In this document: one piece after another, positions 3,392-64,000 of the stretch
How the letters are laid out: every line of letters begins with the position of its first letter
Position numbering within the stretch: the first letter of the stretch is position 1
Origin: a virus
Lineage: Duplodnaviria > Heunggongvirae > Uroviricota > Caudoviricetes
DNA length: 64,000 nucleotides
IMG/VR virus record: IMGVR_UViG_3300047483_000428
Strand: one strand, 5' to 3'
The notes under the pieces: generated by a model
Told to the model about the DNA's origin: nothing
The model's input: the letters and a program-made list of their open reading frames with translations, nothing else
Databases searched by the model: none
Program-made: the position numbers and the translations under genes

Positions 3392-4522
3392 TTACCTGTA
3401 TTTTTTGAATATTGGGTGGACTTCCAATAGCTTCGTGTTACGTGAAGTATCAAGTCTGTCGTTGATGGAAAAGAATTTAGAAAAATCAGCTTCTTCATTT
3501 GTAATAGATTGTAATATACTCAACAGTCTATTTACAGTATCATAGTCATTTTGATTTAGGCAATTTACTTCTTTTATTTTATCTATTTGAGTAGCCATTT
3601 CATAGTTACTCCATTGATCTATTTTTAGATATTCTGGAGAATGTATTTTATCAAAGTATAAAAACCATTTAGGGAACTGAGAAGAAAAGTAACTATATAT
3701 ATCAAATACTCTATAAACGTTCAACACATTTATCACGGTGTGTATAGCAAATTTCATATTATCAAAACAGAGTTCCTCGTATTTTTTCATATTTGAAATT
3801 ACGACATCGAAGTTGCCATCAGTTCTGAAATAATTATAATGCTCAGTTATATCATCGACTGATACAATTAGATGGATTTGTTTTGCTTTTCGCAGTGAAT
3901 TCAAAATACTATCGGTCGGTAATACAGACCCATTTGTTACTATCTCAATAGAAATGTTCTGTATTAGATTATTATCATCCAGCATATGAATTAGCTTACC
4001 AAATGATTTAGACAATATTGGCTCACCGCCTAATATCTTTATTTTTTCAATGTTTTTTAGAGAATGAAAATCAATTGATGATATATCTGGTTCTTGTAGT
4101 ATTCGGTCTGGAACCCAATTTCCAAGCATAATGTCATCTTGTTTCCACCGACTACTACTTGCCGTTTTACAATGTCTACATTTCATATTACAATGATTAC
4201 TGAACGCAATTTCAATACTTGTTATGTCAGAGTTTGGGTCACCAGTTATTTTTTGGTGCTGTAACATGTAATTATGAAACTGACGCATACTGGTTGCGCC
4301 ACTATCTTCTTCGTTCCAGCAATGGTAGCAACCTTCATCACGAATGCCGTTTTTTAAGTTTTCTCTAACTGAAACCAAGTATGGGTCATTGAATGTTTCT
4401 GTAATAGTTTTACCATCCAGAAACAGTCTTTTATCGTGAAGTGGAGAATACCTACAGCAAGGATTCACCTCACCCATAGTATTGATAGCAAGGTGTGTTT
4501 CACTCAGCAAGCATCGTGTCAT
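3392..4522 (-). CDS. radical SAM domain protein
   Basis: CxxxCxxC cluster motif SNHCNMKCRHC, preceded by an extra Cys-rich N-terminal region (NPCCRY, GCYHCW). Length is 376 aa. Confidence 0.65.
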   Translation of the reverse strand: MTRCLLSETHLAINTMGEVNPCCRYSPLHDKRLFLDGKTITETFNDPYLVSVRENLKNGIRDEGCYHCWNEEDSGATSMRQFHNYMLQHQKITGDPNSDITSIEIAFSNHCNMKCRHCKTASSSRWKQDDIMLGNWVPDRILQEPDISSIDFHSLKNIEKIKILGGEPILSKSFGKLIHMLDDNNLIQNISIEIVTNGSVLPTDSILNSLRKAKQIHLIVSVDDITEHYNYFRTDGNFDVVISNMKKYEELCFDNMKFAIHTVINVLNVYRVFDIYSYFSSQFPKWFLYFDKIHSPEYLKIDQWSNYEMATQIDKIKEVNCLNQNDYDTVNRLLSILQSITNEEADFSKFFSINDRLDTSRNTKLLEVHPIFKKYR

Positions 4523-12355: not shown

Positions 12356-12430
12356 TGGTGCGGTCTAATGGATTTGAACCATTGACCTCTGTCGAGTCAG
12401 GACAGCGTTCTACCCCTGAACTAAGGCCGC
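12356..12430 (-). tRNA. tRNA-Val (anticodon GAC), tentative
   Basis: GCGGCCT-TA-GTTC-AGGGGTA-GAAC-G-CTGTC-CTGACTC-GACAG-...-TTCAAAT-...-CCA; position 37 is a pyrimidine. Confidence 0.5.
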
Positions 12431-13152
12431 ATATCTATTTTCAAATTTTCTAACATGGTTCCGTTGAAATCAGCAAACTCAACCTTTTTTGTTGACAAGT
12501 ATTTTTCTGCGACTAATTTAAGATGGTCATAGTTATCTACTATTGTCTTTTTACTTGGTGCTTTTAATTTAGATATATCAAATGGTGTTAGATTTTCTAT
12601 TGGTGTATTACACAGTTCCATATTGGCAAAATCAACAACAGGATCAAAAGTAAGATTTTCCATATATACGATTTCATTATACTGAATATTAAAATCGTTT
12701 CTGCATATATATCCCAAATCCCATAACTGATTATCAACATACCATATAATCATATCATCTGTTATTTCAACTTTATCGAAGTTATGATATTCAACAAATT
12801 CTTTTTTTATATTTGCGATAGCAAGACTCAATGCACTTTGAAAGACATCTTTTCTTAATATGACAATCGTATAATATTTTTTTTGGTAATATCGATCTAT
12901 GACCCCATAGTCTTTCAAATCCACAATTTGAGTAATATGCGTTTTCATTACTACGGGGTCATGTCGTTCAATGAAATTCAGCCGACTATTAAAAAGATTT
13001 GCTATTTCAGACGAAGATGTTATTTCTGGTGGTATTAGAAATGGTTCATTTACACAAACATAATTTTTGTTCAGACTTGTCATGTGATGACAAATCATTC
13101 GTTGCATATATGTCGAACCATTTCTTGGATTACTTATTATTTGAATATTCAT
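12421..13152 (-). CDS. sulfotransferase-like protein (paralog A of 61575..62330)
   Basis: N-terminal ISNPRNGSTY resembles a PAPS 5'-phosphosulfate-binding loop. The shared block RKDVFQSALSLAIA aligns with paralog B's RKNVFDTVMSLALA. Confidence 0.4.
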   Translation of the reverse strand: MNIQIISNPRNGSTYMQRMICHHMTSLNKNYVCVNEPFLIPPEITSSSEIANLFNSRLNFIERHDPVVMKTHITQIVDLKDYGVIDRYYQKKYYTIVILRKDVFQSALSLAIANIKKEFVEYHNFDKVEITDDMIIWYVDNQLWDLGYICRNDFNIQYNEIVYMENLTFDPVVDFANMELCNTPIENLTPFDISKLKAPSKKTIVDNYDHLKLVAEKYLSTKKVEFADFNGTMLENLKIDMRP

Positions 13153-17149: not shown

Positions 17150-17154
17150 CATCT

Positions 17155-17365: not shown

Positions 17366-17392
17366 TATAGCACTATCAGAGTGATTCGTCAA
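17366..17392 (-). promoter_or_regulatory. promoter-like motif, variant spacing (TTGACG-N17-TATAAA)
   Basis: Revcomp reads gcTTGACGaatcactctgatagtgcTATAAAtaa, sigma70-like with the CGAATCAC block immediately after the -35. Confidence 0.45.
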
Positions 17393-17436
17393 GCATTATC
17401 TTCTATTTTATTTATCTTTTTTACATTTTTTCTGTA

Positions 17437-18519: not shown

Positions 18520-18574
18520 GTATACTTGATTTGAAGTTTTTTGTCAAGAATTATATGCTGTTTTATTTATCTAT

Positions 18575-19702
18575 TTATATTACGATTACGCCAAGTGGCG
18601 GAAACCCATTGAACGCAACCGTTGAGTATGTAGTTGTGTATGCTCCACAGTTCTTGATAAAGATTCTATCACCAGACTTCAAGTCAGTTGGAAACTTTAC
18701 TTTGTTAGTTTCATACAAAACATCAGCACTATCACAGGTAGGACCAGCAAGAACACAGGACATTGTATCATTGCTACGGCAATCTGGTGTCACAAACTGA
18801 TACTTGATTGCTTCTTCTGCGGTTTCTGCAAGGCCACTGAACTTACCAATATCCAAGTAAACCCAACGAACTTCGTCACCTTCATTTTTAGTTGACACAA
18901 GTAGAACATTGGCAGAAATCATACCAACATTTCCAACCATACCACGGCCAGGTTCTGCCATGATATACTCAACAACGCCAAACTTATCCGAAATCATCTG
19001 TGTGAGTAGTTGGCAGTATGCCTCTGAATCGGTGATAGGAACGCCATAGAAGGCAGGAAATCCACCACCTATGTTGAGTAGCTTCATATCAAAGCCATTG
19101 CTTACAGCGTCTTTCCAGACCTCTGAGGCATATGTCAGAGTGTCATCCCACATTTCTGGATGACGAGTTTGCGACCCAACATGGAAGCTAATACCGATTG
19201 GTTTCAGCCCAACAGATTTAGCATACTTCATGAGAGGAATAGCTTTTGATTGTCCGCATCCAAACTTACGACTCAATGGCCATTCCGCTTGTGAGTTTGT
19301 AACTAATAGGCGAATGAATACTTCACTGTTCGGTGCGTATTTTGCTATCTTGTCTAGTTCTTCTTCTGCATCTGCTGCATAAAGTTTGATACCTTGTGCA
19401 TACGCATATTCAAGGTCTGCTGGACGCTTTACCGTGTTTCCAAAACTAATGTGTTCTGGTTTAGCGCCAGCATATAGACATATGCGTATTTCTTCTGCGC
19501 TTGCTGCGTCAAAACGGCATCCAAGTTTGACGAGTTTGTTTATGATTTCCTTTTGTGGATTTGCTTTCACGGCATAGTGAATATGGGCATTTCCAAGTCC
19601 AGATTTCAATTTTTTGTAGTTTTCTTCTACCTTCTCCACATCTAGAACGAGGGTTGGATAGTCGAAAACATTCGAGCGAATGTAATCTTCTAGTTTATCC
19701 AT
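18575..19702 (-). CDS. PLP-dependent decarboxylase, Orn/DAP/Arg decarboxylase family (fold-type III)
   Basis: Family-2 PLP attachment signature HYAVKANPQKEIINKLVKLG, the Gly-rich motif IGGGFP and a C-terminal beta-domain. 375 aa, similar in size to CANSDC/NspC or short ODC. Confidence 0.75.
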   Translation of the reverse strand: MDKLEDYIRSNVFDYPTLVLDVEKVEENYKKLKSGLGNAHIHYAVKANPQKEIINKLVKLGCRFDAASAEEIRICLYAGAKPEHISFGNTVKRPADLEYAYAQGIKLYAADAEEELDKIAKYAPNSEVFIRLLVTNSQAEWPLSRKFGCGQSKAIPLMKYAKSVGLKPIGISFHVGSQTRHPEMWDDTLTYASEVWKDAVSNGFDMKLLNIGGGFPAFYGVPITDSEAYCQLLTQMISDKFGVVEYIMAEPGRGMVGNVGMISANVLLVSTKNEGDEVRWVYLDIGKFSGLAETAEEAIKYQFVTPDCRSNDTMSCVLAGPTCDSADVLYETNKVKFPTDLKSGDRIFIKNCGAYTTTYSTVAFNGFPPLGVIVI

Positions 19703-19747
19703 AGTGTTGTGACCCTTTCGTAAAACAACACAGTTATTTATAAGATA

Positions 19748-19837
19748 TGGCGGAAAGTGTGGGATTCGAACCCACGAGAGGTTTCACCCCCTGCTCGTTT
19801 AGTAGACGAGTGCCATCGACCGCTCGGCCAACTTTCC
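19748..19837 (-). tRNA. type II tRNA with anticodon loop CTACTAA (reads as ACT; atypical)
   Basis: GGAAAGT-TG-GCC-GAGCGGTCGAT-GGC-A-CTCGT-CTACTAA-ACGAG plus a long variable arm, then GTGGG-TTCGAAT-CCCAC-ACTTTCC-G-CCA. Ser/Leu-type architecture. Confidence 0.5.
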
Positions 19838-19840
19838 TTT

Positions 19841-20551
19841 TTATTTTCGTATCACTACCGTATATGAACCAAGTTCCGCATCTGGGTATGATGTCAGCAT
19901 GGGAACAATTTCAACATTCTTATACTTATCAAAAAAACTTTTGTCATAGAATGTAAGTGGAGTAGTTTTGTATTTCTCAGACAATTGCTCAAGTGTTAGA
20001 TTTTGTCTGTTTGCTTGCTTTTCCTTGAAAAGATTCTCTGTTTCTTTATCTTTCACATCGGATATCACAACGCCATATTTTGAGCAACGTAGCATTTCTT
20101 GAGTGACGTAATCAGCATCATCATATGATAGATATTGAAAAACTGAATTTGATATGAACCAATCAACTTTATTATCAGTTATCGGTATTTTTTTATCGGA
20201 AACAAAAAAGTGATGTGCTTGCATAGGAAACAGTATCATGCATTGGTCTATAAGTTGTTTGCTTATATCAATTCCATATACATCATTTCCATATGTGTGG
20301 TGAAGGTAATGTAATAATGCAGCGTTTCCGCATCCAAACTCAGCTATTGACGAATTTGTTTCAACAAAATCCATCATGTATTCTACATACGATTTGAATG
20401 TGTTTTTGTCGCAATCAAAAATGGCCTTGTGCAATTCAAAAGATGAATCAAATACCGATTTGTCAGTTGATACTAGTATTTTGTTTGTTTCTAAAACCCA
20501 TGAAAGATTTGGATTGTTAAATATTTTATTCCATGTTTTTACTTCGGTCAT
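19841..20551 (-). CDS. class I SAM-dependent methyltransferase
   Basis: Motif I IAEFGCGNAALLHYL and motif II VYGIDIS. Confidence 0.6.
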   Translation of the reverse strand: MTEVKTWNKIFNNPNLSWVLETNKILVSTDKSVFDSSFELHKAIFDCDKNTFKSYVEYMMDFVETNSSIAEFGCGNAALLHYLHHTYGNDVYGIDISKQLIDQCMILFPMQAHHFFVSDKKIPITDNKVDWFISNSVFQYLSYDDADYVTQEMLRCSKYGVVISDVKDKETENLFKEKQANRQNLTLEQLSEKYKTTPLTFYDKSFFDKYKNVEIVPMLTSYPDAELGSYTVVIRK

Positions 20552-20777
20552 TCGGAATTTCTTTTCTTACTTTCCAATAAACCCAACTCTCCATACAATG
20601 GTGGCTATCGTTAAATACCAAGTTTATAAACCATACGATGTTTGGTTTGTTAGTTCGTTTCCAATGCCAATTTCTTGCACTAAAAGTTTGATTGCTTTCT
20701 CCACCAATCACTACATTGAAGAGAATACTAAATGCGGTGCCGCATCTTTTTATATAGTTTGTTAATACATTTCTCAT
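20526..20777 (-). CDS. hypothetical protein
   Basis: 83 aa, Trp-rich ORF upstream of the methyltransferase. Confidence 0.3.
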   Translation of the reverse strand: MRNVLTNYIKRCGTAFSILFNVVIGGESNQTFSARNWHWKRTNKPNIVWFINLVFNDSHHCMESWVYWKVRKEIPNDRSKNME

Positions 20778-20954
20778 AAATGTATTTATATAAAACCCCC
20801 AACCAGATGCTTATGCGCGGGAACACGACATTTTACGGTATACCAGCATCATTCTCTGTATCAGAGAGGAACAGATTTTAAAGATTGTTAAGGATAAGTC
20901 CCATCCACAGCCGCATGGGTTAACTTACGTGGCAAATCCAGAGGGTTTTATATT

Positions 20955-21575
20955 TCAAATTTTACCATTCAACTCGTTAAACAAACACAAAGCGTATTCA
21001 TCGTGAGCATCTTTATTTGGATGTGATCCATCCAATGCAGGAGGATATTTTAATCTAATACTATCAAAATCAGATTTCAAAAATTCAAAACTCATCCAAT
21101 TTCCAACACTTTTTGAGGTAATATTAGAAATAGATAAAAGTGCGTGAAAGTTATTTACATCTTTTGACCATAAATATCGGTGTATATGGTCCGCTCTTAA
21201 ATTCAAATCTATTAAACCATCATATTCAGAATATAAGTTTTCATAATACCATTCATACTCTGAATATCTTGGTAGTATAAAAACATCATCCGAGTTTTCT
21301 CTAAAATATGTTGTTCTTGTAATAAAAGACCAATTTACTATAACAATATCATCTTGATGATAACCAAAGTCAACTACAGTTTTCCATATTTTTTTATTAC
21401 TAGCACCAGGAATACTTTTGTTTACTACTTCTTGTATTCCTAGTTTTTCAGCGAGAGTATTTGGCCAACCCATCTTACTTGGATACGATGTTATATATGG
21501 ATATTCATTGGTATGACAATCCTCTAACGAGTGTCCATATGTGTAACTGCAACCAAAAACAACTAATCTACTCAT
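20955..21575 (-). CDS. SGNH/GDSL-like hydrolase (tentative)
   Basis: N-terminal block VVFGCSYTYG is block I-like, a GASN block follows, and the C-terminal DGSHPNKDAH fits the DxxH catalytic pair. Confidence 0.45.
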   Translation of the reverse strand: MSRLVVFGCSYTYGHSLEDCHTNEYPYITSYPSKMGWPNTLAEKLGIQEVVNKSIPGASNKKIWKTVVDFGYHQDDIVIVNWSFITRTTYFRENSDDVFILPRYSEYEWYYENLYSEYDGLIDLNLRADHIHRYLWSKDVNNFHALLSISNITSKSVGNWMSFEFLKSDFDSIRLKYPPALDGSHPNKDAHDEYALCLFNELNGKI

Positions 21576-21586
21576 TTTTTAACCTC

Positions 21587-21683
21587 TGGTGTTGGAGAGG
21601 GATTTGAACCCTGCTTTGAACAATTTGTTTCATCCGCCTGCCCGAATATATGAAACAACATCAGCACACCATGCCAGTCCAAC
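21587..21683 (-). tRNA. tRNA-like element with canonical T-arm/acceptor but a long central hairpin instead of D/anticodon arms
   Basis: 3' AGGG-TTCAAAT-CCCT-CTCCAAC-A-CCA and 5' GTTGGAC pair; the centre is a 9 bp hairpin TTGTTTCAT...ATGAAACAA. Confidence 0.25.
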
Positions 21684-21893
21684 ATAATAAATCGTATGCA
21701 TCTTTATCCCTTCTACCCAGTCCACTGTAGGTGCGCCGTAGCTGGCCACACAGCTTCAACCTAGTCCAGTCTTCAACACTCACGTGCTACGATACACGGC
21801 ATTACTCTGCTTCGGGCTTTTTTTGCGGTTGCTACATCGCTTCTCATCATATGGGTTACCGCCCATACTATCTGTTGCTACACAGAACGTCTA

Positions 21894-21978
21894 TGGTGCC
21901 CGTAGAGGGACTTGAACCCCCACTCCGTTAGGAACCTGATTTTGAGTCAGGCGCGTCTACCAATTTCACCATACGGGC
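21894..21978 (-). tRNA. tRNA-Leu (anticodon CAA), type II
   Basis: GCCCGTA-TG-GTG-AAATTGGTAGA-CGC-G-CCTGA-CTCAAAA-TCAGG plus variable arm TTCCTAACGGAGTG, then GGGGG-TTCAAGT-CCCTC-TACGGGC-A-CCA. Confidence 0.75.
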
Positions 21979-21982
21979 AAAT

Positions 21983-22198
21983 TTATAAATCTTTTGTATT
22001 ATCTATCTCTCTACCAAGAGAAATATTTTTTTGTGCTCTTACTTTGTTGTTTGGCCAAGTCCAACACTGTCCATCATCATCACCAAAACAAACCCACATC
22101 AAGTTATGTTCTGGTCCATAATCTATCAAAACATGCGCCAATGCTGGACCTCTTGGCGTATAAAGAGGTATCGGTGGATTTAGCTGTAACATATTCAT
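21983..22198 (-). CDS. hypothetical protein
   Basis: 71 aa ORF. Confidence 0.35.
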   Translation of the reverse strand: MNMLQLNPPIPLYTPRGPALAHVLIDYGPEHNLMWVCFGDDDGQCWTWPNNKVRAQKNISLGREIDNTKDL

Positions 22199-22220
22199 GT
22201 AAGTTCTCCCCTCACACTAT

Positions 22221-22847
22221 TTATGCTACTGACGCCTCTTTCACAACTTTTGCAACTACTTTATACAAACCAGGATTTACAACTAACGCTTTTGGCATCA
22301 ACTCATGACGAATAAAGTTACGCATATACTTTGTATCGCTGTTACTTTTATCTTCAATCCATTCAATGCTTTTTCGTTCACACCAATCAACAAACTCATA
22401 CTTACGGTTCATACGAAATGGACGAATAACATTCATGTTGCGATATGGAATAACTTTACCAAAACCGTTCAATGACGACCAAATCCAAGTTTCAGTGCAA
22501 TCATCCAAGTGATGACAAGTTACAACTGGCACATCCATACTATAGAAGATTTTGTATCGCTCGTTTCTCCAATGTTCTTCCTGAGACGTATTTTTGGGAG
22601 GGTTTTCATCAGAAATACATGTCTTGATGAGACGTTCACCAAATACAGAATCAAGAAACTTTTCTGCTTCTCTACTTGTTTCAGTTCCGTGATTTACAAA
22701 TAGGGGACGGACTGTATGATTGCGACTTAGGAAGTCAACAACTGCCATACTATCAACGCCGCCACTACAAGCGACAATCACTTCACGTGGGATTTTACCT
22801 TGGATTTTGATCATATTCGAAACAGTCTTTTCCTGTTTGGTGTTCAA
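22221..22847 (-). CDS. PP-loop ATP pyrophosphatase (TilS-like tRNA(Ile)-lysidine synthetase or QueC-like)
   Basis: SGGVDS PP-loop in VIVACSGGVDSMAVVDFL followed by FVNHG. Context of four CAT-anticodon tRNAs favours TilS-like. Confidence 0.6.
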   Translation of the reverse strand: MNTKQEKTVSNMIKIQGKIPREVIVACSGGVDSMAVVDFLSRNHTVRPLFVNHGTETSREAEKFLDSVFGERLIKTCISDENPPKNTSQEEHWRNERYKIFYSMDVPVVTCHHLDDCTETWIWSSLNGFGKVIPYRNMNVIRPFRMNRKYEFVDWCERKSIEWIEDKSNSDTKYMRNFIRHELMPKALVVNPGLYKVVAKVVKEASVA

Positions 22848-23046
22848 ATGTTAGAAGGCCGAGTCGTGGAGACTTCTTATTCGCACATACACCATAATCA
22901 AATCCAAGTTCCCCGTCAAGAGGCAAAAACCATTTACATCCACAACTACAGTCTGGGTAATCTTGATTGTCGGCCCATCGTTTGACTTCTCCACCATAAT
23001 CAGTGTAATCAGATGGAAGGACTTTTATAAACGACATATCAATCAT
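22795..23046 (-). CDS. hypothetical Cys-containing small protein
   Basis: 83 aa with a CSCGCKW motif. Confidence 0.35.
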   Translation of the reverse strand: MIDMSFIKVLPSDYTDYGGEVKRWADNQDYPDCSCGCKWFLPLDGELGFDYGVCANKKSPRLGLLTFEHQTGKDCFEYDQNPR

Positions 23047-23064
23047 ATTCAGACCTTTTTATTT

Positions 23065-23141
23065 TGGTAGTCCCCCTCGGACTTGAACCGAGATATCCGT
23101 TCTTATGAGGAACGCTCATTCACCAATTATGATAGAGGACC
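23065..23141 (-). tRNA. tRNA with CAT anticodon, copy 4
   Basis: GGTCCTC-TA-TCAT-AATTGGTGA-ATGA-G-CGTTC-CTCATAA-GAACG-GATAT-CTCGG-TTCAAGT-CCGAG-GGGGACT-A-CCA. Confidence 0.7.
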
Positions 23142-23255
23142 GTAATTCTGTTCGGTTTGTCGCAGACTCCGAAAAACTGCTTTCAGTAACCTAGACGCAG
23201 AGCATCATCCCTGTAGGACCATTGTCCCGCTACCGCCATCGCATTACCTTCTAAA

Positions 23256-23332
23256 TGGTGCCCCCGGTGGGATTCGAACCCACACTGTAGAGATTTTAAG
23301 TCTCCTGCCTCCTGCCTTTGGGCTACGAGGGC
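23256..23332 (-). tRNA. type I tRNA with anticodon TAA (Leu-type anticodon on a short-variable-arm body)
   Basis: GCCCTCG-TA-GCC-...-GGC-A-GGAGA-CTTAAAA-TCTCT-ACAGT-GTGGG-TTCGAAT-CCCAC-CGGGGGC-A-CCA. Confidence 0.55.
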
Positions 23333-23452
23333 ATTTTATTACTTGTTCCGACACCAGCCCCCAAACCCGCCGTGTCAGTGACTACTTCCATATCCCAAAG
23401 AGAACAGAAAGGAAAAGGTTCTCAACGGTATACTAAGTATCTTTCCTAATAT

Positions 23453-23529
23453 TGGCGATTCCGGCAGGACTCGAACCTGCAACCCACAGCTTAGAAGGCT
23501 GTTGCTCTATCCAGTTGAGCTACGGAACC
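23453..23529 (-). tRNA. tRNA-Arg (anticodon TCT)
   Basis: GGTTCCG-TA-GCTC-AACTGGATA-GAGC-A-ACAGC-CTTCTAA-GCTGT-GGGTT-GCAGG-TTCGAGT-CCTGC-CGGAATC-G-CCA. Confidence 0.75.
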
Positions 23530-53466: not shown

Positions 53467-54531
53467 TTATGGTGTGGGGTTACTTGGTGGTGTCGCATTA
53501 GCCGAGTTGGCGTCAGCTTCGTCCAACACTCTGTTGAATTCTCGTAAACGCTTTATAACAGACTGGAAATCAACAATCGTTGTCCAACGGTCAATGAAGT
53601 ATGTAAGCGCACTTTCAACTCGTCCAAACGCATTTAGAACTTGTATGAGAACACCAAATGTAACCAACTGTGCGAAATAGCTTGGTGCCAGCACAACAAG
53701 AGCCACGTTTCCTGCTATCATACCAAATGCGGTTTGCCATACACCAAATCCCATATACCAGTTGAACAAACGATAATAGTTACGTTTGATTGAAGCAAAC
53801 ATAGGGAATAGGTCTGCGGTCAAACGATGGTTGAAATCATCTTCGGAATGAACTAACTTCTTTCTAAACTGTGCTTCTACCACTTGGTTGTTATATTCTA
53901 ACCCAGGAAGTTTTATACCCAACAAGAATGACAGCAATGTTCCGCCCAAGGACATGGTAAGAGCAACCCACACCAAGAACCCAGGAATTATTTGGTCGCC
54001 CCACACTGGCAGTCCTTCGCTCAGATTCCACAAAACTGGCAAGAAAGCTGCAAGAACAAAAATCTTATTCACAAATCCAGCAAATAGACCTTGTAGTGTT
54101 TTTCCAAAGACCATCAAGTCTTCTTGTATACGCTGTGAGCCACCTTCAATCTTTGCCGTTGATTTTTCCCAACGCTTTAGATAATACATCGTGTTTGCTT
54201 CTCTCCATGCAAACGTGTAACGCTGTGTTTGCCACGTTGAATAAACTGCGATTGGAGTGTATAGCACAATGATTTCCAAGAAACTGGGAACAATCATTTC
54301 GGAGTCGATTCTTAGCATTAGAAAGTCAAAAAATCTTCCTGTATCCCAACCCCATAACAATTCCCAAAAGGTTTCCTCTTGTAGCGTTTGTATGGCATCA
54401 TAGAACTCTCTGTTCCACGCATTATAATATACGAGAATTTCAACGCTATACCAACCAACGAATAGCAACCATGCTAACATTAGCCAAGAATATAACGCGG
54501 TTTCTCTGTTCCAAAAGAAACTTTTTAGCAT
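53467..54531 (-). CDS. polytopic inner-membrane protein (at least 6 TM), transporter-like
   Basis: 354 aa with multiple hydrophobic helices and a C-terminal Pro/Ser/Asn-rich tail; first gene of the membrane module. Confidence 0.5.
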   Translation of the reverse strand: MLKSFFWNRETALYSWLMLAWLLFVGWYSVEILVYYNAWNREFYDAIQTLQEETFWELLWGWDTGRFFDFLMLRIDSEMIVPSFLEIIVLYTPIAVYSTWQTQRYTFAWREANTMYYLKRWEKSTAKIEGGSQRIQEDLMVFGKTLQGLFAGFVNKIFVLAAFLPVLWNLSEGLPVWGDQIIPGFLVWVALTMSLGGTLLSFLLGIKLPGLEYNNQVVEAQFRKKLVHSEDDFNHRLTADLFPMFASIKRNYYRLFNWYMGFGVWQTAFGMIAGNVALVVLAPSYFAQLVTFGVLIQVLNAFGRVESALTYFIDRWTTIVDFQSVIKRLREFNRVLDEADANSANATPPSNPTP

Positions 54532-56908: not shown

Positions 56909-57382
56909 TCATTGGTTGCCTGACTCTAAATTGACAAGTTGTATCTTTAATACTTGACTACATACCAACCCGACAAGAGTAGTATATAGTGCAGTGCTCA
57001 TACCAAGCGCCATTGCGACAAGTGCAGATTTTAGTGTTTCTGGATTAGAAGCATCTATTTCAGCAAACGAACCGCCTAGCATCATAATAAAACCAGCAAC
57101 GGTTCCAATCATACCAAGTGTCAACATAGTTTCACTTATGAACCATGCAATTTCGGTTCTTTCTTCTACTATTTTGTTTTTGGAATTTTCGTAAGACAAT
57201 TTTCCAACAAACAAACTTGCAATTATATACAACGCTATAATCAAGACGCTTATTTTAGTTGTATCCTTGGTGTAAATTTCCCAAGTCCATCCAAAGATGT
57301 ATGCAATGTATCCCATAACTAATGATAAACAAAAAACTAGCCACCATTTTAGAACTTTAGACATTAATACTTCTCCACACAT
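56909..57382 (-). CDS. MotA/TolQ/ExbB-family proton-channel protein (short form, 4 TM)
   Basis: C-terminal TMs carry the family signature TMLTLGMIGTVAGFIMMLGG...ALVAMALGMSTALYTTLVGLVCS (cf. MotA GMIGTV.GL...LG.GIAVAL.TT.YG). Confidence 0.6.
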   Translation of the reverse strand: MCGEVLMSKVLKWWLVFCLSLVMGYIAYIFGWTWEIYTKDTTKISVLIIALYIIASLFVGKLSYENSKNKIVEERTEIAWFISETMLTLGMIGTVAGFIMMLGGSFAEIDASNPETLKSALVAMALGMSTALYTTLVGLVCSQVLKIQLVNLESGNQ

Positions 57383-57525: not shown

Positions 57526-58161
57526 TTAGTATGTTTCTACAACCACGTCAGCAATACCATGTTGGACTGCTTCTTCTGGTGTTAGCCAGTGGTCTGTTTT
57601 TGGCGCAAGCAAGTGCTTACGAATATACTTTTCCGTTTTGCCAGTGCATTTGATGTAGTGTTCAAGCAACTTGTCGTTTGTCCAATCCATGTGTTTGCGG
57701 CTTTCAACCATATCATGGTATTGGCCACGAGTGCCACCACTAAATTCATGGCTCATAACAGCGGTGTTTTGTGTCAGGTAACGGTGTCCCTTTTCTCCTG
57801 ACATCATGAGCATCACACCACAACTTGCAATGCTTCCCATTCCATAGGTATATACTGGAATACGACTTTGTTTGATAATGTCAATCAGATGCATACAACT
57901 GTCAACGTAACCACCAGGGCTGTTGATATATAGATGAATCACTTCTGGTGCTCTATCGGCTGGCATCAAGTTGTATTCCATAATCATTTTTACTAGTGGC
58001 ATACAATTTTCTTGATTGAACTCTTTGTCCATAAACAACACACCATTGTCGCGCAAGTATTCACCTAGCTGTTTTGGTGGACTTGGTGGCGCTGGCGGTG
58101 GTGGTGGAGGGGTTTGTGGCGCTGGTGTTTCTTTTGGAACGGGGATGACTTTGTTTTTCAT
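57526..58161 (-). CDS. ClpP-like serine protease with Pro-rich N-terminal linker
   Basis: Contains YINSPGGYVDSCMHLIDII...GMGSIASCGVMLMMSG...MSHEFSGG, ClpP-like Ser/His regions. The N-terminus is PAPQTPPPPPPAPPSPP. Confidence 0.7.
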   Translation of the reverse strand: MKNKVIPVPKETPAPQTPPPPPPAPPSPPKQLGEYLRDNGVLFMDKEFNQENCMPLVKMIMEYNLMPADRAPEVIHLYINSPGGYVDSCMHLIDIIKQSRIPVYTYGMGSIASCGVMLMMSGEKGHRYLTQNTAVMSHEFSGGTRGQYHDMVESRKHMDWTNDKLLEHYIKCTGKTEKYIRKHLLAPKTDHWLTPEEAVQHGIADVVVETY

Positions 58162-58914: not shown

Positions 58915-60312
58915 TTACTGCTTTACAGGGTTTCCGATAGTAGGATCAACACTCAGTTGCTTTGCAGAGTTTAGCATCATCAGTTGCATAAACTGGTCTA
59001 CGGTTCCAAGTGCATTTCCCGCAGTCCCATCGCTACCACCACCAGCAATCACAGTGGAAGGAACATTGATTTTAGATGCGGCGTCTGCCCATACACGTTG
59101 TGCTTCAACCCAAGCATCAAGTTTCTGTTGTAGCGCACCGTCAGCTTCAAGGATAGCTTGTTTGGCGTAGGCTTCTGCATCGGCAGCAACAGTTACAGAT
59201 TGTGCGTCAACCTTTGCACGTTCCAGATTGATTTCCGAGGTTTCTTGTGCAATTCGGGCTTCCTCGCGGATACGTTCAGCTTCAATTAGAGCAAGTTTTT
59301 TCGTGGTTTCGGCGTTTGTAGTCTTTTCAATCTGTTCCACTTTTGCTTCTGCTTGACGCTTGGCAATGTCAGTTTCACCTTGTTGAATAGCCAGCAGACG
59401 CTGTTCTTCTTGCTCAAGGCGTTGTTCACGAGCAACTACACGACGAGACGCAGCTTTCTTACGTTCACCAATTTGACGCTCATATTCATCATCTGGGTCA
59501 ATGTTTTCAAGAATTGCAGATGATACAACAACACCGATTTCCGCAAAGTCATGTGGGGTTCGGATGTCATTGCCGCTTGCGTCTGTCACTTTTTCCATCA
59601 TAACACGACGAACTTCTGTGTCGCCAACTTCTGAAGTGTCGGCAGCAACATCGCTACTTGATGGAGCGGCACGACTAGGAATTACGCCACCCGCTTGGTT
59701 GAAAGACACTTGACGAACTTGCGCACGACCCTTTTCAACAGTATCTTTGAACTCGCTCTTGAATTGGTCCCGCTTACCACCAGAGTAGTATTCTTCCATG
59801 GTAAACATGTTGGAAACCGAGTCAAGCGATGCAGTAACGGCAGGTTTCAGAGTAGTGCTAATCAGACGCTCAGGACTACGGAAGGTTCGTGCCATCGTCA
59901 AGAATTGTTCTTGATCTTGTGGGATTGCAAAACGAGTGGTCTGAGTAACATCACCTGTCCAGTTGTCTGCTAGGCGAACACGATATGGACCCGTGACAGA
60001 ACTGCCATCCGCTTCAATATCAATCGTGTTTGCGACTGTAATGAAGTGAGGCCATGCGGTAGAAGTTCCCCAACCGACAAAAAACCAACCTGTTTCGCAA
60101 ACTGCGGTTTCTGTTCCAAAAATACTCCGAGTGTGTTGGCAGTATCCAGCGTCATTGTAACTTACGGCCCCAAGACCGATAATTGCAACACCAAAAACGG
60201 CGACCGCAGATGAAACGATTGTTTTTACTTTTCGTAGTTCAGGCACCAGAGGCACAGCTTTGATTGCGATTGCCGCAATAATAAAGACGATGCCTAGAAT
60301 AAGTCCAGTCAT
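58915..60312 (-). CDS. SPFH/Band-7 (flotillin/YqiK-like) membrane protein
   Basis: N-terminal TM, an SPFH domain, then a long Ala/Glu-rich coiled coil (EAKVEQIEKT...ERAKVDAQSVTVAADAEAYAKQAILEADGALQQKL) typical of flotillin/HflK/C. Confidence 0.75.
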   Translation of the reverse strand: MTGLILGIVFIIAAIAIKAVPLVPELRKVKTIVSSAVAVFGVAIIGLGAVSYNDAGYCQHTRSIFGTETAVCETGWFFVGWGTSTAWPHFITVANTIDIEADGSSVTGPYRVRLADNWTGDVTQTTRFAIPQDQEQFLTMARTFRSPERLISTTLKPAVTASLDSVSNMFTMEEYYSGGKRDQFKSEFKDTVEKGRAQVRQVSFNQAGGVIPSRAAPSSSDVAADTSEVGDTEVRRVMMEKVTDASGNDIRTPHDFAEIGVVVSSAILENIDPDDEYERQIGERKKAASRRVVAREQRLEQEEQRLLAIQQGETDIAKRQAEAKVEQIEKTTNAETTKKLALIEAERIREEARIAQETSEINLERAKVDAQSVTVAADAEAYAKQAILEADGALQQKLDAWVEAQRVWADAASKINVPSTVIAGGGSDGTAGNALGTVDQFMQLMMLNSAKQLSVDPTIGNPVKQ

Positions 60313-60342
60313 TATTTTATCCTTTGTTAGATTGTGTGTGAG

Positions 60343-60489
60343 TTAGTTTTGTTCTGAACCGTAGTTCATAAGCGTTTCGTGGTTTTCAATAACGTGCCAT
60401 ACCATGCGTTCAATAGCTTTGCTAACAAACCACAGTCCACCAAACATAAGCACGTTTGGGATTACATAGTATACAACTACATCTACCAT
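60343..60489 (-). CDS. small membrane protein (48 aa) co-transcribed with the SPFH gene
   Basis: Hand translation gives MVDVVVYYVIPNVLMFGGLWFVSKAIERMVWHVIENHETLMNYGSEQN, with an AAGGAAA RBS downstream of promoter motif 60536..60568. Confidence 0.3.
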   Translation of the reverse strand: MVDVVVYYVIPNVLMFGGLWFVSKAIERMVWHVIENHETLMNYGSEQN

Positions 60490-60535
60490 GTCGTTTTCCT
60501 TCGTATTGAGTTTGCACTATTGCTCACTCTTATGT

Positions 60536-60568
60536 GTTATATATAGTATAGATTCGTGTCAATGTCAA
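60536..60568 (-). promoter_or_regulatory. promoter-like motif copy heading the SPFH operon
   Basis: Plus strand reads atatatagtatagattcgtgtcaatgtcaa. Confidence 0.5.
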
Positions 60569-60757
60569 GAGGATAGTAAGTGAAAAGCAAGATTTTCTGT
60601 TGTTGCATACTTTCTATAAGTATAGGTGTATTCCATCCTTCCGCCCATAATCATAACTTTAGTGCATATTCTCAAAAACATCCACCTTTTAGTGAAAATG
60701 CACCAACCAAATGGATTGATGCATCTTACTTCTTTGCAGTCTATTATACGCTCATCA

Positions 60758-61096
60758 TTACGCAAAGTTCACCGAAACTCCACATCCGCAGCCAGATTGT
60801 GCATTTGGATTGAAAAGTTCAATTTTACTTCCAGTGATATCGCTGACATAATCAACAGTCGTTCCGATAAGATACATTAGGCTGTGACTGTCAACATACA
60901 GAGTGAAGTTATCGTATTCTTGAACCTCATCGCCAAACATATGGTCCTTGACTTCATCGAATATTTCCCAATGGTATTGGAAACCCGCGCATCCACCACC
61001 GATGATGCCAAACTTCACCAGTTTTCCAGATGCGATATTAGTAAAGTGATTGATTGCTTTGTCGGTTAGTGTCACAACACTCATTTTTTTCTCCAT
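60758..61096 (-). CDS. HesB/IscA-family iron-sulfur cluster insertion protein
   Basis: C-terminal CGCGVSVNFA matches the conserved Cys-Gly-Cys of A-type carriers; an N-terminal Cys lies in GGGCAGFQY. Confidence 0.65.
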   Translation of the reverse strand: MEKKMSVVTLTDKAINHFTNIASGKLVKFGIIGGGCAGFQYHWEIFDEVKDHMFGDEVQEYDNFTLYVDSHSLMYLIGTTVDYVSDITGSKIELFNPNAQSGCGCGVSVNFA

Positions 61097-61578
61097 TTTG
61101 TGATAGATAGTCCGCTATCTATTATTTCGTTATTGTGAATATAGAATTGGCTTGTTATTTTTTCTTTTGGTAAAAACACGTCACAATCATATATTCCACT
61201 AATATTACTTATCCACAATTCATCTATAATATCAAGGCAGTCTTCAATAAGCGAAGCGCCGCCGATGACCCATGTAATGTATTCCGAGTATCTAGTTTCT
61301 ATGATTTCCTTGATGATTCTAGAAGGATTGCCACTATATACTCCATGGGGTGCGTTCTTCCATTCATTTGGATTCATGGAAGACGATATTACAAAGTTCA
61401 GACGGTTGGATAGTGGTTTATATGGAAGGCTATCCCATGTCTTTCTTCCCATTACCACCGAATGACCATTGGTGCAATCTTTGAACCATTTCAAGTCGGC
61501 AGAGTTACGGGGCCATGGCAAGTCGCCGTTCTTTCCTATGCCCCAATTGTCGTCCATTGCAAATATTGCGTTTATCAT
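61081..61578 (-). CDS. frd: dihydrofolate reductase
   Basis: N-terminal MINAIFAMDDNWGIGKNGDLPWP with the DHFR signature, and LNFVISSS downstream; 165 aa. Confidence 0.85.
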   Translation of the reverse strand: MINAIFAMDDNWGIGKNGDLPWPRNSADLKWFKDCTNGHSVVMGRKTWDSLPYKPLSNRLNFVISSSMNPNEWKNAPHGVYSGNPSRIIKEIIETRYSEYITWVIGGASLIEDCLDIIDELWISNISGIYDCDVFLPKEKITSQFYIHNNEIIDSGLSITKWRKK

Positions 61579-62330
61579 GATTTTGGTATAAATCTCTCGT
61601 AGTTGGCAAACTCTTCATCAAGAAACCCATCTGGTTTTACTAACTTTATCTTGTTTGAAACCATAAAGCTATTGAAATATCTTCTGAGTTGTTCAATGTT
61701 GTCAATTGATGATTCTTTTGATGGTCCCCGATGAACCCTGCTTTCCATACTTTCTATGTAAGTTGGAATGAAGCCAGATTTCTTCACATCTGCTATTGGG
61801 TCAGATGTCAAATCTTCATAATAAATCACTTTATTGTATACGATACCAAGTTCATTACTTCTAAACTTTCGATAGTTGTTTAGACAGTCAAGTAGTGTTC
61901 GGTGAAATATATCAATAGGAACGGATTTTTTGTCAACTGTGGCGTCTTTATCATAGAACCAAACATCTTTTGTTCGGGCTAACGCCAGACTCATAACGGT
62001 GTCAAACACATTTTTACGAACAAGCACAACAGTGTGCCAATCAAGAGACATATACCTATCCCAAAGATTATTTCCCATACTGTGAAGATGAAACATGTTG
62101 AACATGTGATTTTTGACAAGACAATGGTTTGATTTGGTAAACGCCTCTACACGCTCTTCCGCATATTTTGGAAATTCATCACGGGAAATCTTCTCTCTCG
62201 CGGTAATCCAGTCAATATTGAATGGTTCATACTGTATCTCAAAGTCTGGATATTCTCTGATGTATCGTTCAAGCAACCCGGCATAATATGTGCTGCCGGA
62301 TCGCGGATGTGTAAGTAATTGTATTCTCAT
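61575..62330 (-). CDS. sulfotransferase-like protein (paralog B of 12421..13152)
   Basis: Start at MRIQLLTHPRSGSTYY. Shares PRxGSTY, EPF and VVLVRKNVFDTVMSLALA blocks with paralog A. ATGA-coupled to the S8 protease gene. Confidence 0.45.
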   Translation of the reverse strand: MRIQLLTHPRSGSTYYAGLLERYIREYPDFEIQYEPFNIDWITAREKISRDEFPKYAEERVEAFTKSNHCLVKNHMFNMFHLHSMGNNLWDRYMSLDWHTVVLVRKNVFDTVMSLALARTKDVWFYDKDATVDKKSVPIDIFHRTLLDCLNNYRKFRSNELGIVYNKVIYYEDLTSDPIADVKKSGFIPTYIESMESRVHRGPSKESSIDNIEQLRRYFNSFMVSNKIKLVKPDGFLDEEFANYERFIPKS

Positions 62331-62331
62331 A

Positions 62332-64000
62332 TTAGAACCTTTGTGTAAGGGTAAAGCCAATCTGTGGCGCGGTTTCGCCAGCAATACCCATGTAATTTTC
62401 GCGAACTTCTGCAAACATAGAAACGTTAGTCATTGGTGCTACGTCTACATTGTAAAACACACCAAGATTTACTTCACGACTATTATTCGCAAGAGATTCA
62501 GTTGCAGAAGCAGATGATACCACACCTTCAGCACTTACGGAAGATGCATATTCCATTGACACTTCCCCAGATTGAATGGAAACTGGAAGTGCCGCCACAA
62601 CTCCAAAGTGTCCGTTTTTCGTGTTGAATTTTGCACCAATGCTTGCTGTGTTGCTGATTATAGTTCCAGCACTTTTCATCATAGAGTTATCTCCAACATT
62701 CAGGTCAGTCGCACCAAATCCAATACTCCCAAACAGTGAGCCGTTTCCAGTTTGAATTTCTGGATTGAAACTTACATAAGTTGTAGTCGCACCAGTTACA
62801 TTCATGATTGGACTGTTCGCCGTGTTTCCAAGGAATGAACCATCTTCTTTCATCATCCCGAATGTCATAAATCCTGCGTTATATGATAGACCATAGTTTG
62901 TTCCATCAGTGTTTGTAGATACAGCAACATTGCCGATATTGATATTTAGTCCTTTTGTATAACCCATGTAATTGTCTGCATTTGAGTTATACGATGCTGC
63001 CAGAACTGGGTTCACCATGCGAGTATCAGTAGCAACGTTCAGTTTGTTGCCATCAACATAAAAGTTTCGATCATAGTCATCAACGACCATCATACTGGAC
63101 AACGAAGCCATATTCATCCCTGCAACAGAAAGTTGCCCATCAAGCGAAGCGGTTGCCCCATCAATCCGACCAGTCGTAGGAATACCAATTGCACCCTGTG
63201 GAGACGTTGCGTTATCAAGGTCCATGACGCCTTGACCGTGAATATTTACATTATAGCCAGCAAACGATTTGTCCGCAGTTTCCATGAGTAGTTTTACAAT
63301 ATTATCGCCTGTCATGTATGGCCACATTTGATGAACTAGTGCTACGCCACCAGAAATAGCGGGAGCAGCCATAGATGTTCCACTCAGAGCACGATAGTCC
63401 CCACCATTATCGGTTGAAGTGACCCAAGAACCAGGAGCCATCAAATAATAGTCGCTAACACGATAGGTATTGTTACACTGATTAGTTACGGAATTGTAAT
63501 CATAGCACATTGTTCCAGCACGGTTTGAGTAAGAAGCAATATTATTTGTTCCAAGGTCAAACGAACCAGCAATGATTACCCGACCGTCAAGTGCAAGGTT
63601 GCCATTTTCATCAGTGATAGTGGCATAGTGAGCAGGAAACGCTGGAAATGCCAACCCTTGGTTACCAGCAGCCACAACAAGAACAGTGTCATTTCCACTC
63701 ATCGCACTGATAACAGGAGCAGTGAAGTTGTTGCTATCTAGCACTTGGTTGTAACCAAGAGATTGGTATGGGCTGTAGGTGCTATAGTAAAAACCATCGC
63801 CAATAGACACTACACTATTACGGTATGTAGAATCCATACTCATTTCGGCACTTACGTTTACTACATCTGCGCCATTTGATACTGCCCATGCGATACCATT
63901 ACCAAGTTGGTCAAGTTCAATATATCCGCTATCATGACCAATTTTGCCAATCAACAGGTCAGCGTCAGGCGCAACACCAGTCATGCCAACGCCATCTAAT
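62332..64000 (-). CDS. S8 subtilisin-family serine protease with beta-barrel-like C-terminal domain (partial; N-terminus beyond window end)
   Basis: Asn oxyanion VVAAGNQG and catalytic Ser in LSGTSMAAPAISGGVALV. The C-terminal 250 aa are Gly/Ser/Asn/Thr-rich with alternating hydrophobics ending ...IGFTLTQRF (aromatic terminus, autotransporter/OMP-like). Confidence 0.7.
   Translation of the reverse strand, partial: LDGVGMTGVAPDADLLIGKIGHDSGYIELDQLGNGIAWAVSNGADVVNVSAEMSMDSTYRNSVVSIGDGFYYSTYSPYQSLGYNQVLDSNNFTAPVISAMSGNDTVLVVAAGNQGLAFPAFPAHYATITDENGNLALDGRVIIAGSFDLGTNNIASYSNRAGTMCYDYNSVTNQCNNTYRVSDYYLMAPGSWVTSTDNGGDYRALSGTSMAAPAISGGVALVHQMWPYMTGDNIVKLLMETADKSFAGYNVNIHGQGVMDLDNATSPQGAIGIPTTGRIDGATASLDGQLSVAGMNMASLSSMMVVDDYDRNFYVDGNKLNVATDTRMVNPVLAASYNSNADNYMGYTKGLNINIGNVAVSTNTDGTNYGLSYNAGFMTFGMMKEDGSFLGNTANSPIMNVTGATTTYVSFNPEIQTGNGSLFGSIGFGATDLNVGDNSMMKSAGTIISNTASIGAKFNTKNGHFGVVAALPVSIQSGEVSMEYASSVSAEGVVSSASATESLANNSREVNLGVFYNVDVAPMTNVSMFAEVRENYMGIAGETAPQIGFTLTQRF

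Follow-up and report, generated by a model that had tools for sequence, protein, structure and literature searches.

Two genes that adjoin near the end of the window (the whole stretch of 64,000 nucleotides of viral DNA that was analysed) probably represent two unrelated auxiliary functions set side by side, namely an autotransporter-like surface protease of the subtilase (S8) type and a cytoplasmic protein of the sulfotransferase fold, the latter having a diverged paralog elsewhere in the window. An earlier note on this DNA had recognized both proteins and proposed that they act jointly on the host surface. Its identity calls, sulfotransferase-like for one and a subtilase with a barrel for the other, are upheld by the present analysis, whereas the joint function is not. 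Of the two outcomes that it had named as refuting, a P-loop kinase or other fold for the paralogs and a tail-fibre chaperone as the S8 C-terminus, neither was obtained.

The carrier is best explained as a large (jumbo-class) uncultured phage with a Gram-negative host. Evidence for its phage origin comes from 23 tRNA genes, from matches to the PHROGs of tRNA nucleotidyltransferase and RNA ligase, and from a neighbouring Band_7 protein, which has its best relatives in Alishewanella, Sinorhizobium and Vibrio phages. Megablast of positions 60300-64000 against deposited phages gave no matches. All genes treated here lie on the minus strand (Table 1), and a scan for promoters and terminators gave a signal no higher than shuffle level.

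Table 1. Positions in the window of the genes, domains and motifs discussed in the text
Feature	Position	Strand	Details
S8-barrel protease gene, 3' part	62332..64000	-	Residues 334-888 and stop codon; ORF list, Pfam
Subtilase (S8) catalytic domain, in-window part	63199..64000	-	Residues 334-600; Pfam, PDB matches
Oxyanion Asn446 (AAGN)	63661-63663	-	
Nucleophile Ser542 (GTSMAAP)	63373-63375	-	
Conserved linker region	62950..63198	-	Residues 601-683; invariant columns in alignments A1 and A4
Predicted outer-membrane beta-barrel	62335..62949	-	Residues 684-888; about 12 strands
Sulfotransferase-like paralog B	61575..62330	-	251 aa, cytoplasmic; BLASTP, motifs, profiles
5'-PSB loop of paralog B (P9-Y15)	62286-62306	-	
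K73-x-H75 of paralog B	62106-62114	-	
3'-PB of paralog B (R105...S114)	61989-62018	-	
Sulfotransferase-like paralog A	12421..13152	-	243 aa; SIR2 gene on one side, Dcm-type methylase gene on the other
N_Twi_rSAM (twitch-domain radical SAM) gene	3392..4522	-	NCBIfam NF033640
DHFR gene (context only)	61081..61578	-	ORF list

The subtilase and its C-terminal domain

The protease gene leaves the window at position 64000 and was recovered in full (888 aa) from the source contig (L001:7333-9999), where its 5' third supplies a signal peptide, a Thr-rich region and the catalytic residues Asp283 (DTGID) and His322 (HGTHVAG). Residues 274-589 of the full protein match Pfam Peptidase_S8 (PF00082) with an E-value of 5.4e-36 and 124.8 bits (cutoff 21.8), the part encoded in the window reaches 78.8 bits by itself against the same model, and the PDB sequence matches of the domain are subtilisins at about 1e-23. 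The AAGN oxyanion and GTSMAAP serine motifs, on which the earlier note had based its call of a large S8 subtilisin, are both present. The subtilase domain is intact, with the triad and oxyanion residues in the expected order, and all four (D283, H322, N446, S542) are invariant in 24 of 24 distinct orthologs.

Genes for this S8-barrel protein were found in at least 31 viral contigs of IMG/VR, encoding proteins mostly of 880-945 aa, with a signal peptide or lipobox in all complete orthologs and a terminal Phe in 26 of the 31. A tblastn search with the S8 fragment gave three partial matches among deposited phages, all confined to the S8 domain, while a word-indexed protein search with the C-terminal domain returned only five close matches. 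No bacterial homolog was seen in 185,579 GTDB genomes by a narrow scan with a single, very specific pattern, and no literature on phage subtilase autotransporters was found. A 92-aa conserved neighbour of the gene in other phages was considered as a partner and rejected; by its motifs it resembles a MazG-type pyrophosphohydrolase, and it is therefore a marker of shared ancestry rather than of function.

Overall, the protein is predicted to be an exported subtilase with an autotransporter-like C-terminus of the outer-membrane barrel type. The full-length sequence, needed for the signal-peptide check that the earlier note had proposed, begins with a Sec signal peptide (MKKLLLALFISLSVIVSPVLA, followed by G), as read by eye from the letters, and some 250 aa of Thr-rich sequence lie ahead of the protease domain. 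Two signatures of the family, PQGxIGIPTTGRIDG and MVVDDYDRxFYVDGN, are located in the region that follows the protease domain. In the AlphaFold model this linker (residues 601-683) is coil with a single 6-residue helix and a pLDDT below 35, and the model, in which the linker is thus of low confidence, lacks the pore-plugging alpha-helix of type Va autotransporters.

The C-terminal domain is predicted, with modest model confidence (pLDDT 57, from an alignment of 6 sequences), to fold as an outer-membrane beta-barrel. The model contains about 12-13 strand elements and its best structure matches are 12-stranded barrels. The amphipathicity of the C-terminal strands exceeds that of all 1000 shuffles, the last 288 aa are rich in Gly (11.5%), Ser (10.4%), Asn (10.4%), Ala (9.7%) and Thr (8.7%), and the C-terminus, ...IGFTLTQRF, has the terminal Phe and alternating hydrophobic residues of a beta-signal, all in agreement with the barrel-like C-terminus read by the earlier note. 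In alignment A4 the last residue of the barrel domain is Phe in 23 of 24 sequences and Leu in one, preceded by G-hydrophobic-x-hydrophobic; the distant, lipoprotein-type members L037-L039 extend for ∼58 further residues after the barrel end. The Pfam Autotransporter beta-domain (PF03797) gave no matches with the protein at E<=10 or with 24 family members at E<=1, a 24-sequence profile had no match in the PDB, solved barrels included, and hhalign of the barrel with the Ag43 beta-domain returned a probability of 0.6%. It is rather unlikely, in our estimate, that instead of a translocator the barrel forms an anchor or a channel in the outer membrane, in which case the protease would be periplasmic and attack envelope proteins from the inner side, or the barrel itself, as a FapF- or COG4313-like channel, would be the functional part.

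Phage tail fibres often have C-terminal autoproteolytic chaperone domains, and the earlier note had offered a tail-fibre-like adhesin with a protease domain as an alternative. Such a virion protein, whose protease domain would serve as intramolecular chaperone or resemble a depolymerase module, might be suggested by the match of PHROG 3677 ('protease') to the S8 region, but it is exceedingly improbable and the candidate was rejected. Complete orthologs have a conserved Sec signal peptide or lipobox, which cannot be reconciled with virion assembly in the cytoplasm; the C-terminus is modelled as a membrane barrel, and neither the protein nor the 24 family members have a Pfam match to Peptidase_S74 or another tail-fibre domain. 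The neighbours of the gene (DHFR, TK, tRNAs and ClpP) are of the early or auxiliary kind, and it lies outside any structural module.

The sulfotransferase-like family and its radical SAM association

Paralogs A and B were correctly paired by the earlier note: BLASTP aligns B with A at 25% identity over 246 aa, with an E-value (2e-23) that rules out chance. The PR(N/S)GSTY loop and the RK(D/N)VF(Q/D)xxxSLA block noticed at that time are found in both, as HPRSGSTYY and VRKNVFDTVMSLALA in paralog B and as NPRNGSTYM and LRKDVFQSALSLAIA in paralog A. Paralog B is taken to start at the ATG at 62330, since its homologs begin MRIQLL; a rival ORF starting from TTG at 62414 would overlap the protease gene.

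Neither window paralog passes the curated thresholds of Pfam or NCBIfam. Paralog B scores 20.2 bits (E=8e-4) against Sulfotransfer_3, below the gathering score of 27, paralog A has no Pfam match, and neither was placed in a family by NCBIfam or PHROGs. A profile of the paralog alignment (A2) found only noise in the PDB, and a pattern search of IMG/VR with the same alignment gave no confirmed loci. Word-indexed protein searches returned only five close matches for paralog B, and likewise for paralog A. The family becomes visible only through exhaustive HMM search, which at E<=1e-3 yielded 364 clusters (50% identity), all of them unnamed; members were seen only on metagenomic, phage-like contigs.

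Residues that in known sulfotransferases bind PAPS or take part in catalysis are conserved across this family, as judged from an alignment of 127 sequences in which R10 and S114 are invariant (127/127) and R105 (126), K73 (122), G12 (119) and H75 (110) are present in most members; S/T13 is present in 122 of the 127, and a YEDL motif is also conserved. The 5'-PSB loop of SULT and Stf0 structures, P-[KR]-x-G-[ST]-[ST], follows the first strand, and it is matched by PRSGST in paralog B and PRNGST in paralog A. The 3'-PB region (R105/S114) aligns with the NodH segment LeRenklasysSlskA, and the K73-x-H75 motif aligns with NodH KTHI and is presumably the counterpart of the catalytic K106/H108 of cytosolic SULTs. 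The 127-sequence profile (A3) gave seven PDB matches, five of which are sulfotransferases; the best was NodH (E=1.2e-3), in an alignment that covers the PSB loop, KxH and 3'-PB. In Pfam, 29 of the 127 members match Sulfotransfer_3 (E<0.01, best 5e-6), 5 match Sulfotransfer_1 and 2 match Stf0. The paralogs thus have the sulfotransferase fold, with the 5'-PSB and 3'-PB motifs that the earlier note had suspected, and the comparison with Sulfotransfer_1/3 and Stf0 that it called for bears this out.

Sulfotransferases and P-loop nucleotide kinases have a common fold, and Foldseek gave only weak matches in which kinases were mixed, with PSTK at the top E-value followed by many dTMP and adenylate kinases. 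Together with the scores of the window paralogs below the Pfam sulfotransferase thresholds, this could point to nucleotide kinases of the P-loop type or to some other nucleotide-binding enzyme that shares the fold. That reading is clearly improbable. The Walker A motif GxxxxGK[ST] is absent; in the family loop, (S/G)xPR(S/T)G(S/T)(T/S)Y, the hydroxyl residue is not preceded by Lys, and the invariant Arg stands two residues before the Gly.

For the sulfotransferase-like enzymes, a pathway partner may be encoded within the window. ORF 3392-4522 matches NCBIfam NF033640 over its full length with 246.1 bits (cutoff 170), and the alignment of this protein to the radical SAM half of two proteins (P0049 and P0074) in which a sulfotransferase-like domain is fused to N_Twi_rSAM runs from one end to the other. 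Cassettes of the two genes also occur on four independent contigs (L042, L043/L044, L048 and L049), and the link is missing at L045 and L046. On the strength of these fusions and clusters elsewhere, the window N_Twi_rSAM, which lies 8 kb and 57 kb from the paralogs, is a candidate pathway partner. No literature on N_Twi_rSAM function was found, and no PAPS-metabolism gene was seen among a scanned subset of window ORFs. A pairing of hydroxylase and sulfotransferase genes has been described (PMC2938197); an arrangement of that type was considered and rejected, as the ORF found at the corresponding place in the window (4519-5343) encodes a peptidoglycan-binding protein and no hydroxylase.

Relation between the two genes and proposed roles

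The earlier note had read the protease and paralog B as a translationally coupled pair that modifies or degrades a host receptor or capsule. The genes do adjoin, with one base between the TAA stop codon of the protease gene (62334-62332) and the paralog B start codon, upstream of which is a possible AAAGG ribosome-binding site, and the same order is common to four close relatives (L001-L004). The best PDB profile match is moreover named 'LPS sulfotransferase NodH', and sulfotransferases of the NodH type have LPS or Nod-factor glycans as substrates. However, the pairing is limited to the close kin of the window, and in 31 viral loci of IMG/VR that carry the S8-barrel gene, no sulfotransferase-like gene was present up to a distance of 8 kb. 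In the relative at L010, whose S8-barrel protein shares 63% identity in its C-terminal domain, DHFR directly follows the protease gene, and at L009 an unrelated gene lies downstream. Tight spacing is usual along this whole strand, and paralog B itself overlaps the DHFR gene by 4 nt (ATGA). Paralog A lies amid unrelated genes at a distance of 49 kb, in an arrangement (SIR2-A-Dcm-methyltransferase) that is kept on a 347-kb contig. The paralogs also lack signal peptides and so work in another compartment than the exported protease, and their recurrent partner is N_Twi_rSAM. A coupled pair is therefore very improbable; the protease and the sulfotransferase-like gene are most likely neighbours by accident, not partners.

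In our preferred reading of two unrelated functions, the S8-barrel protein would pass to the periplasm via Sec, the host BAM machinery would insert the C-terminal domain as a ∼12-strand barrel, and the protease would either stay exposed at the surface of the infected cell or be released from it. By analogy with NalP, for which a role in surface-protein shedding is described (PMC5472700), it would most likely cleave proteins on the host surface, for instance receptors, pili or matrix. Such cleavage would block superinfection or keep progeny from sticking to debris. The conservation of the S8-barrel family in phages and its absence from the narrow GTDB scan suggest that large phages actively remodel the outer surface of the dying cell by means of host Sec and BAM machinery. 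Paralogs A and B, from their conserved residues, may be PAPS-dependent sulfotransferases and, as their recurrent partner is N_Twi_rSAM and not the protease, they probably tailor the product of a radical SAM pathway.

A bolder proposal is that the S8-barrel protein founds a phage-restricted class of autotransporters, with a beta-domain unrelated to PF03797, that serves as a surface 'sheddase' of large lytic phages, and that independently the sulfotransferase-like genes and multi-copy N_Twi_rSAM form a cassette for a sulfated product of a kind new to viruses. We offer this tentatively and regard it as doubtful in its entirety. If true, the sheddase would strip receptors or other surface proteins, leading to superinfection exclusion and progeny escape, and the sulfated product would be a small molecule, a peptide or a nucleic-acid modification.

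Comparison with known systems

Autotransporters are usually seen as bacterial surface or virulence devices. Those of the classical type (type Va) have 12 strands and an alpha-helical linker that fills the pore, and subtilase-type members include NalP (Neisseria meningitidis), SphB1, Ssp, EprS and AasP. Whereas this group is encoded by bacteria, the S8-barrel protein is encoded by large uncultured phages. It differs further in its beta-domain, for which neither PF03797 nor any solved barrel shows detectable sequence similarity, in a signature of its own (MVVDDYDRxFYVDGN), in having no predicted pore helix, and in the long Thr-rich sequence before the protease. Examples of autotransporters carried by phages are adhesins of temperate or defective prophages, a precedent being Ag43 (flu), whose gene lies in the annotated E. 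coli cryptic prophage CP4-44. In contrast to this adhesin on a defective temperate element, the S8-barrel passenger is a protease, carried by a large phage that is rich in tRNA genes and of a kind related to lytic myoviruses; the two barrels are, by the hhalign comparison above, unrelated in sequence. The S8-barrel proteins thus form a conserved family in which the catalytic site is intact and to which deposited phage genomes offer no close counterpart; their compact, sequence-novel barrel could serve for surface display.

Sulfotransfer_3 auxiliary genes have been reported in OM43 phages and in Synechococcus phage S-SRM01, with a function that the authors considered unclear (PMC10580990). The present family is likewise phage-encoded and of the sulfotransferase fold, but while those genes are recognizable PF13469 members, it falls below the Pfam threshold and gave no tblastn match (queries paralog B and family member P0027) in 50,697 deposited phage records. 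With Stf0 (the mycobacterial trehalose 2-sulfotransferase), NodH and Sulfotransfer_3 the paralogs have an identity of only about 15%, and they differ from all three in lying under every Pfam and NCBIfam threshold and in the recurrent fusion and clustering of their family with the uncharacterized N_Twi_rSAM. This association points to an unexplored phage pathway and provides a first contextual handle on both families.

Identity and family of the sulfotransferase-like paralogs

The two sulfotransferase-like genes of the window, paralogs A and B, share 25% identity across 246 residues (E=2e-23), and the two motif blocks quoted for them in the earlier note are present in both. The Sulfotransfer_3 score of paralog B is 20.2 bits, below the cutoff of 27; paralog A has no Pfam match, and neither paralog has one in NCBIfam or PHROG. 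A word-indexed protein database yielded five close homologs per paralog and no more; when both subfamilies were used in an exhaustive HMM search, 364 clusters passed E≤1e-3, of which 183 also passed E≤1e-10. The family members checked come from metagenomic sources only, and none carries a functional name. Conservation across an alignment of 127 sequences is highest at R10 and S114 (127 of 127), R105 and N211 (126 each), followed by K73 (122), G12 (119), Y15 (116), E172 (114) and H75 (110). We take these positions to be the features of SULT, NST and Stf0 enzymes, namely the PSB loop P-R-x-G-S/T-S/T, the catalytic K-x-H, the 3'-PB Arg and Ser, and YEDL.

When the profile of this alignment was compared with the PDB, five of seven matches were sulfotransferases, the best being NodH (E=1.2e-3, aligned over the PSB loop, KxH and 3'-PB). 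Pfam matches among the 127 members were to Sulfotransfer_3 (29), Sulfotransfer_1 (5) and Stf0 (2). The AlphaFold model of paralog B is good (pLDDT 83, pTM 0.81); a Foldseek search with it was ambiguous. On these profile and Pfam results the paralogs do not group with kinases, and the Walker A lysine is absent from the family alignment. The sulfotransferase-like identity proposed earlier is thus upheld, and the paralogs are members of a new, divergent sulfotransferase-fold family with putative functions. Both begin straight at the first strand, without a signal peptide, which places them in the cytoplasm. Marine phages are also reported to carry Sulfotransfer_3 genes, of unknown role (PMC10580990).

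SIR2, paralog A, a Dcm-type cytosine methylase and a SAM methyltransferase follow one another in the window (10263-14091, minus strand) and in the same order on a 347-kb contig (L006:6976-10620), so paralog A lies in a stable setting of its own that has nothing to do with the protease. A predicted tRNA-Val (12356-12430, minus strand) overlaps the final 10 nt of paralog A, including its stop codon, on the same strand.

Features of the window, of the S8 protein and of related loci (L-numbers denote loci on metagenomic or viral contigs)
Feature	Location	Strand	Detail
Paralog B	61575-62330		251 aa
Paralog A	12421-13152	-	243 aa
N_Twi_rSAM and sulfotransferase-like cassette, standalone or fused	L042:2574-10690
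N_Twi_rSAM and sulfotransferase-like cassette, standalone or fused	L043:3590-10135 (L043/L044)
N_Twi_rSAM and sulfotransferase-like cassette, standalone or fused	L048:1-6021
N_Twi_rSAM and sulfotransferase-like cassette, standalone or fused	L049:1205-7702
Sec signal peptide, textbook type	N-terminus of S8 protein		MKKLLLALFISLSVIVSPVLA
Thr-rich region	~240 aa of S8 protein		21% Thr
S8 domain	residues 274-589		Pfam 5.4e-36; subtilisins are best PDB sequence matches
C-terminal domain	289 aa of S8 protein		no Pfam match
Band_7/SPFH protein	58915-60312	-
ClpP	57526-58161	-
MotA/ExbB-like protein	56909-57382	-
SbmA/BacA-like transporter	53467-54531	-

Association with N_Twi_rSAM genes

Two family members, P0049 (651 aa) and P0074/P0170 (664 aa), are fusions of an N-terminal sulfotransferase-like half to a radical SAM half, which belongs to the twitch-domain family N_Twi_rSAM (NCBIfam NF033640; 316-336 bits). 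A full-length N_Twi_rSAM gene lies in the window itself (3392-4522, minus strand; 246 bits, cutoff 170), and its product aligns with the fused halves over the whole length. On four independent contigs, a sulfotransferase-like gene lies within a series of three to five N_Twi_rSAM paralogs, and orthologous radical SAM subgroups are common to these cassettes. One context without radical SAM genes was recovered twice, as L045 and L046, two nearly identical loci. In the window these genes are scattered, with 8 kb between the radical SAM gene and paralog A and 57 kb between it and paralog B. N_Twi_rSAM is the sole recurrent partner found for the sulfotransferase-like genes, a candidate link by guilt by association. 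We found no literature on its function, and the cassette represents a fresh lead.

Just past the fusion gene on L043, a 47-aa ORF (9992-10135) is an N-terminal piece of a second sulfotransferase-like gene (MKHIHLIGLPRSGTTYLF..., HMM E=1.6e-9), probably a decayed duplicate. In the window, the start of the N_Twi_rSAM gene overlaps by 4 nt a gene (4519-5343, minus strand) whose 274-aa product has a PG_binding_1 domain at its C-terminus and may be a cell-wall-binding or endolysin-like enzyme.

Genomic setting of the protease gene

A single base separates the stop codon of the S8 gene from the start codon of paralog B, whose own stop overlaps the DHFR start. All sizeable ORFs of the window are on the minus strand, and such spacing is ordinary on this densely packed strand. 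The family HMM detected no sulfotransferase-like member within 8 kb of the S8 gene in any of 31 IMG/VR loci. At L010, whose S8 C-terminal domain shares 63% identity with the one in the window, DHFR comes straight after S8, then an IscA-like gene and Band_7; at L009 the next gene is unrelated. The side-by-side position of S8 and paralog B is therefore an insertion limited to close kin of the window (L001-L004), and the joint function suggested in the earlier note for protease and sulfotransferase-like enzymes finds no support in these gene orders.

The window is part of a 185,629-bp JGI metagenome contig (exact match of paralog B), and locus L001 on that contig adds 10 kb past position 64000. 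Contigs with homologs of the paralogs measure 246 kb and 347 kb, indicating a lineage of jumbo-phage size. No close relative was found among deposited phages at the DNA level; the neighbouring Band_7 protein is most closely related to those of Alishewanella phages Slicko01/Slickus01 (58%), followed by Sinorhizobium phage phiN3 (49%) and Pseudomonas and Vibrio phages. PHROG matches include a tRNA nucleotidyltransferase and an RNA ligase, and 23 tRNA genes, four of them tRNA-Met, lie within 8092-23529. ARAGORN predicts a tRNA-Ser with anticodon ACT (19748-19837) and a 97-nt tRNA-Tyr with anticodon ATA (21588-21684), both on the minus strand; A at position 34 is unusual for bacterial-type tRNAs.

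A subtilase with an export signal and a predicted barrel

The S8 ORF leaves the window, which encodes residues 334-888, AAGN and GTSMAAP among them; the full gene (L001:7333-9999) encodes 888 aa. The subtilisin identity read from those motifs is confirmed by the Pfam match, and D283, H322, N446 and S542 are invariant in all 24 distinct orthologs, which as judged from sequence indicates an active enzyme under selection. No close match to the protein was found among deposited phages. The C-terminal domain, whose last 288 aa are rich in Gly/Ser/Asn/Ala/Thr and terminate in TLTQRF, is encoded whole on 31 viral contigs in an IMG/VR pattern scan (27-46% identity); in 185,579 GTDB genomes, scanned with a single pattern, there were 0 matches. 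Reconstructed orthologs are mostly 880-945 aa, the complete ones all starting with a signal peptide or, in a distant subgroup, a lipobox, and a terminal Phe follows a G-hydrophobic-x-hydrophobic pattern in 26 of 31 loci.

In an AlphaFold model of the domain, of modest confidence (pLDDT 57, pTM 0.52), ~12 long antiparallel strands cover residue 684 through the C-terminus. In an independent check on a 24-sequence alignment, the predicted strands alternate in hydrophobicity (2.38 versus 1.09 ± 0.22 in 1000 shuffles, maximum 1.81). The barrel-like C-terminus proposed earlier holds as a prediction. Sequence methods gave no connection to the Pfam Autotransporter family or solved barrels, and the pore helix of classical autotransporters is absent from the prediction. 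We therefore describe the architecture as type Va-like, and on sequence grounds the protein is not classed as a PF03797 member; with its predicted barrel, we propose that it would work like a type Va autotransporter. In the distant subgroup (L037-L041; S8 ORFs of ~890-1234 aa, barrel identity 27-30%), the signal is of lipoprotein type (LTACGGGGG), as in NalP, and the barrel ends in ...KKF and is followed by ~58 further residues, so it does not form the C-terminus in these proteins.

From this architecture we infer a mechanism in which Sec would carry the protein out, BAM would put the barrel into the membrane, and the protease would be displayed on the infected-cell surface or released from there. 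By analogy, its most likely role would be cleavage of host surface proteins, leading to superinfection exclusion or easier progeny escape. An orientation to the periplasm is a less likely alternative. A virion protein, or the tail-fibre-like adhesin with a protease domain that had also been suggested, is contradicted by the export signal conserved in the orthologs and by the position of the gene among auxiliary genes (TK, DHFR, IscA-like, Band_7, ClpP, MotA/ExbB-like, SbmA-like). Directly downstream of the paralog B/S8 region, a row of envelope- or membrane-directed phage genes (53467-60312, minus strand) suggests, together with the exported protease, a module acting on the host envelope. Past the window end, ~4.5 kb upstream of the S8 gene in the same co-directional array, L001:2837-5299 encodes an 820-aa protein in which FG-GAP_2 repeats occur eight times (1.4e-111) and which weakly matches a phage Tudor domain.

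The putatively surface-acting protease has a subtilase-autotransporter architecture with a sequence-novel barrel, found solely on viral contigs; such a protein in lytic-type jumbo phages would be unexpected for a specialist. Ag43 in CP4-44 is a precedent for a prophage-borne autotransporter. The closest known system is NalP, a subtilase autotransporter and also a lipoprotein, which frees other proteins from the bacterial surface (PMC5472700).
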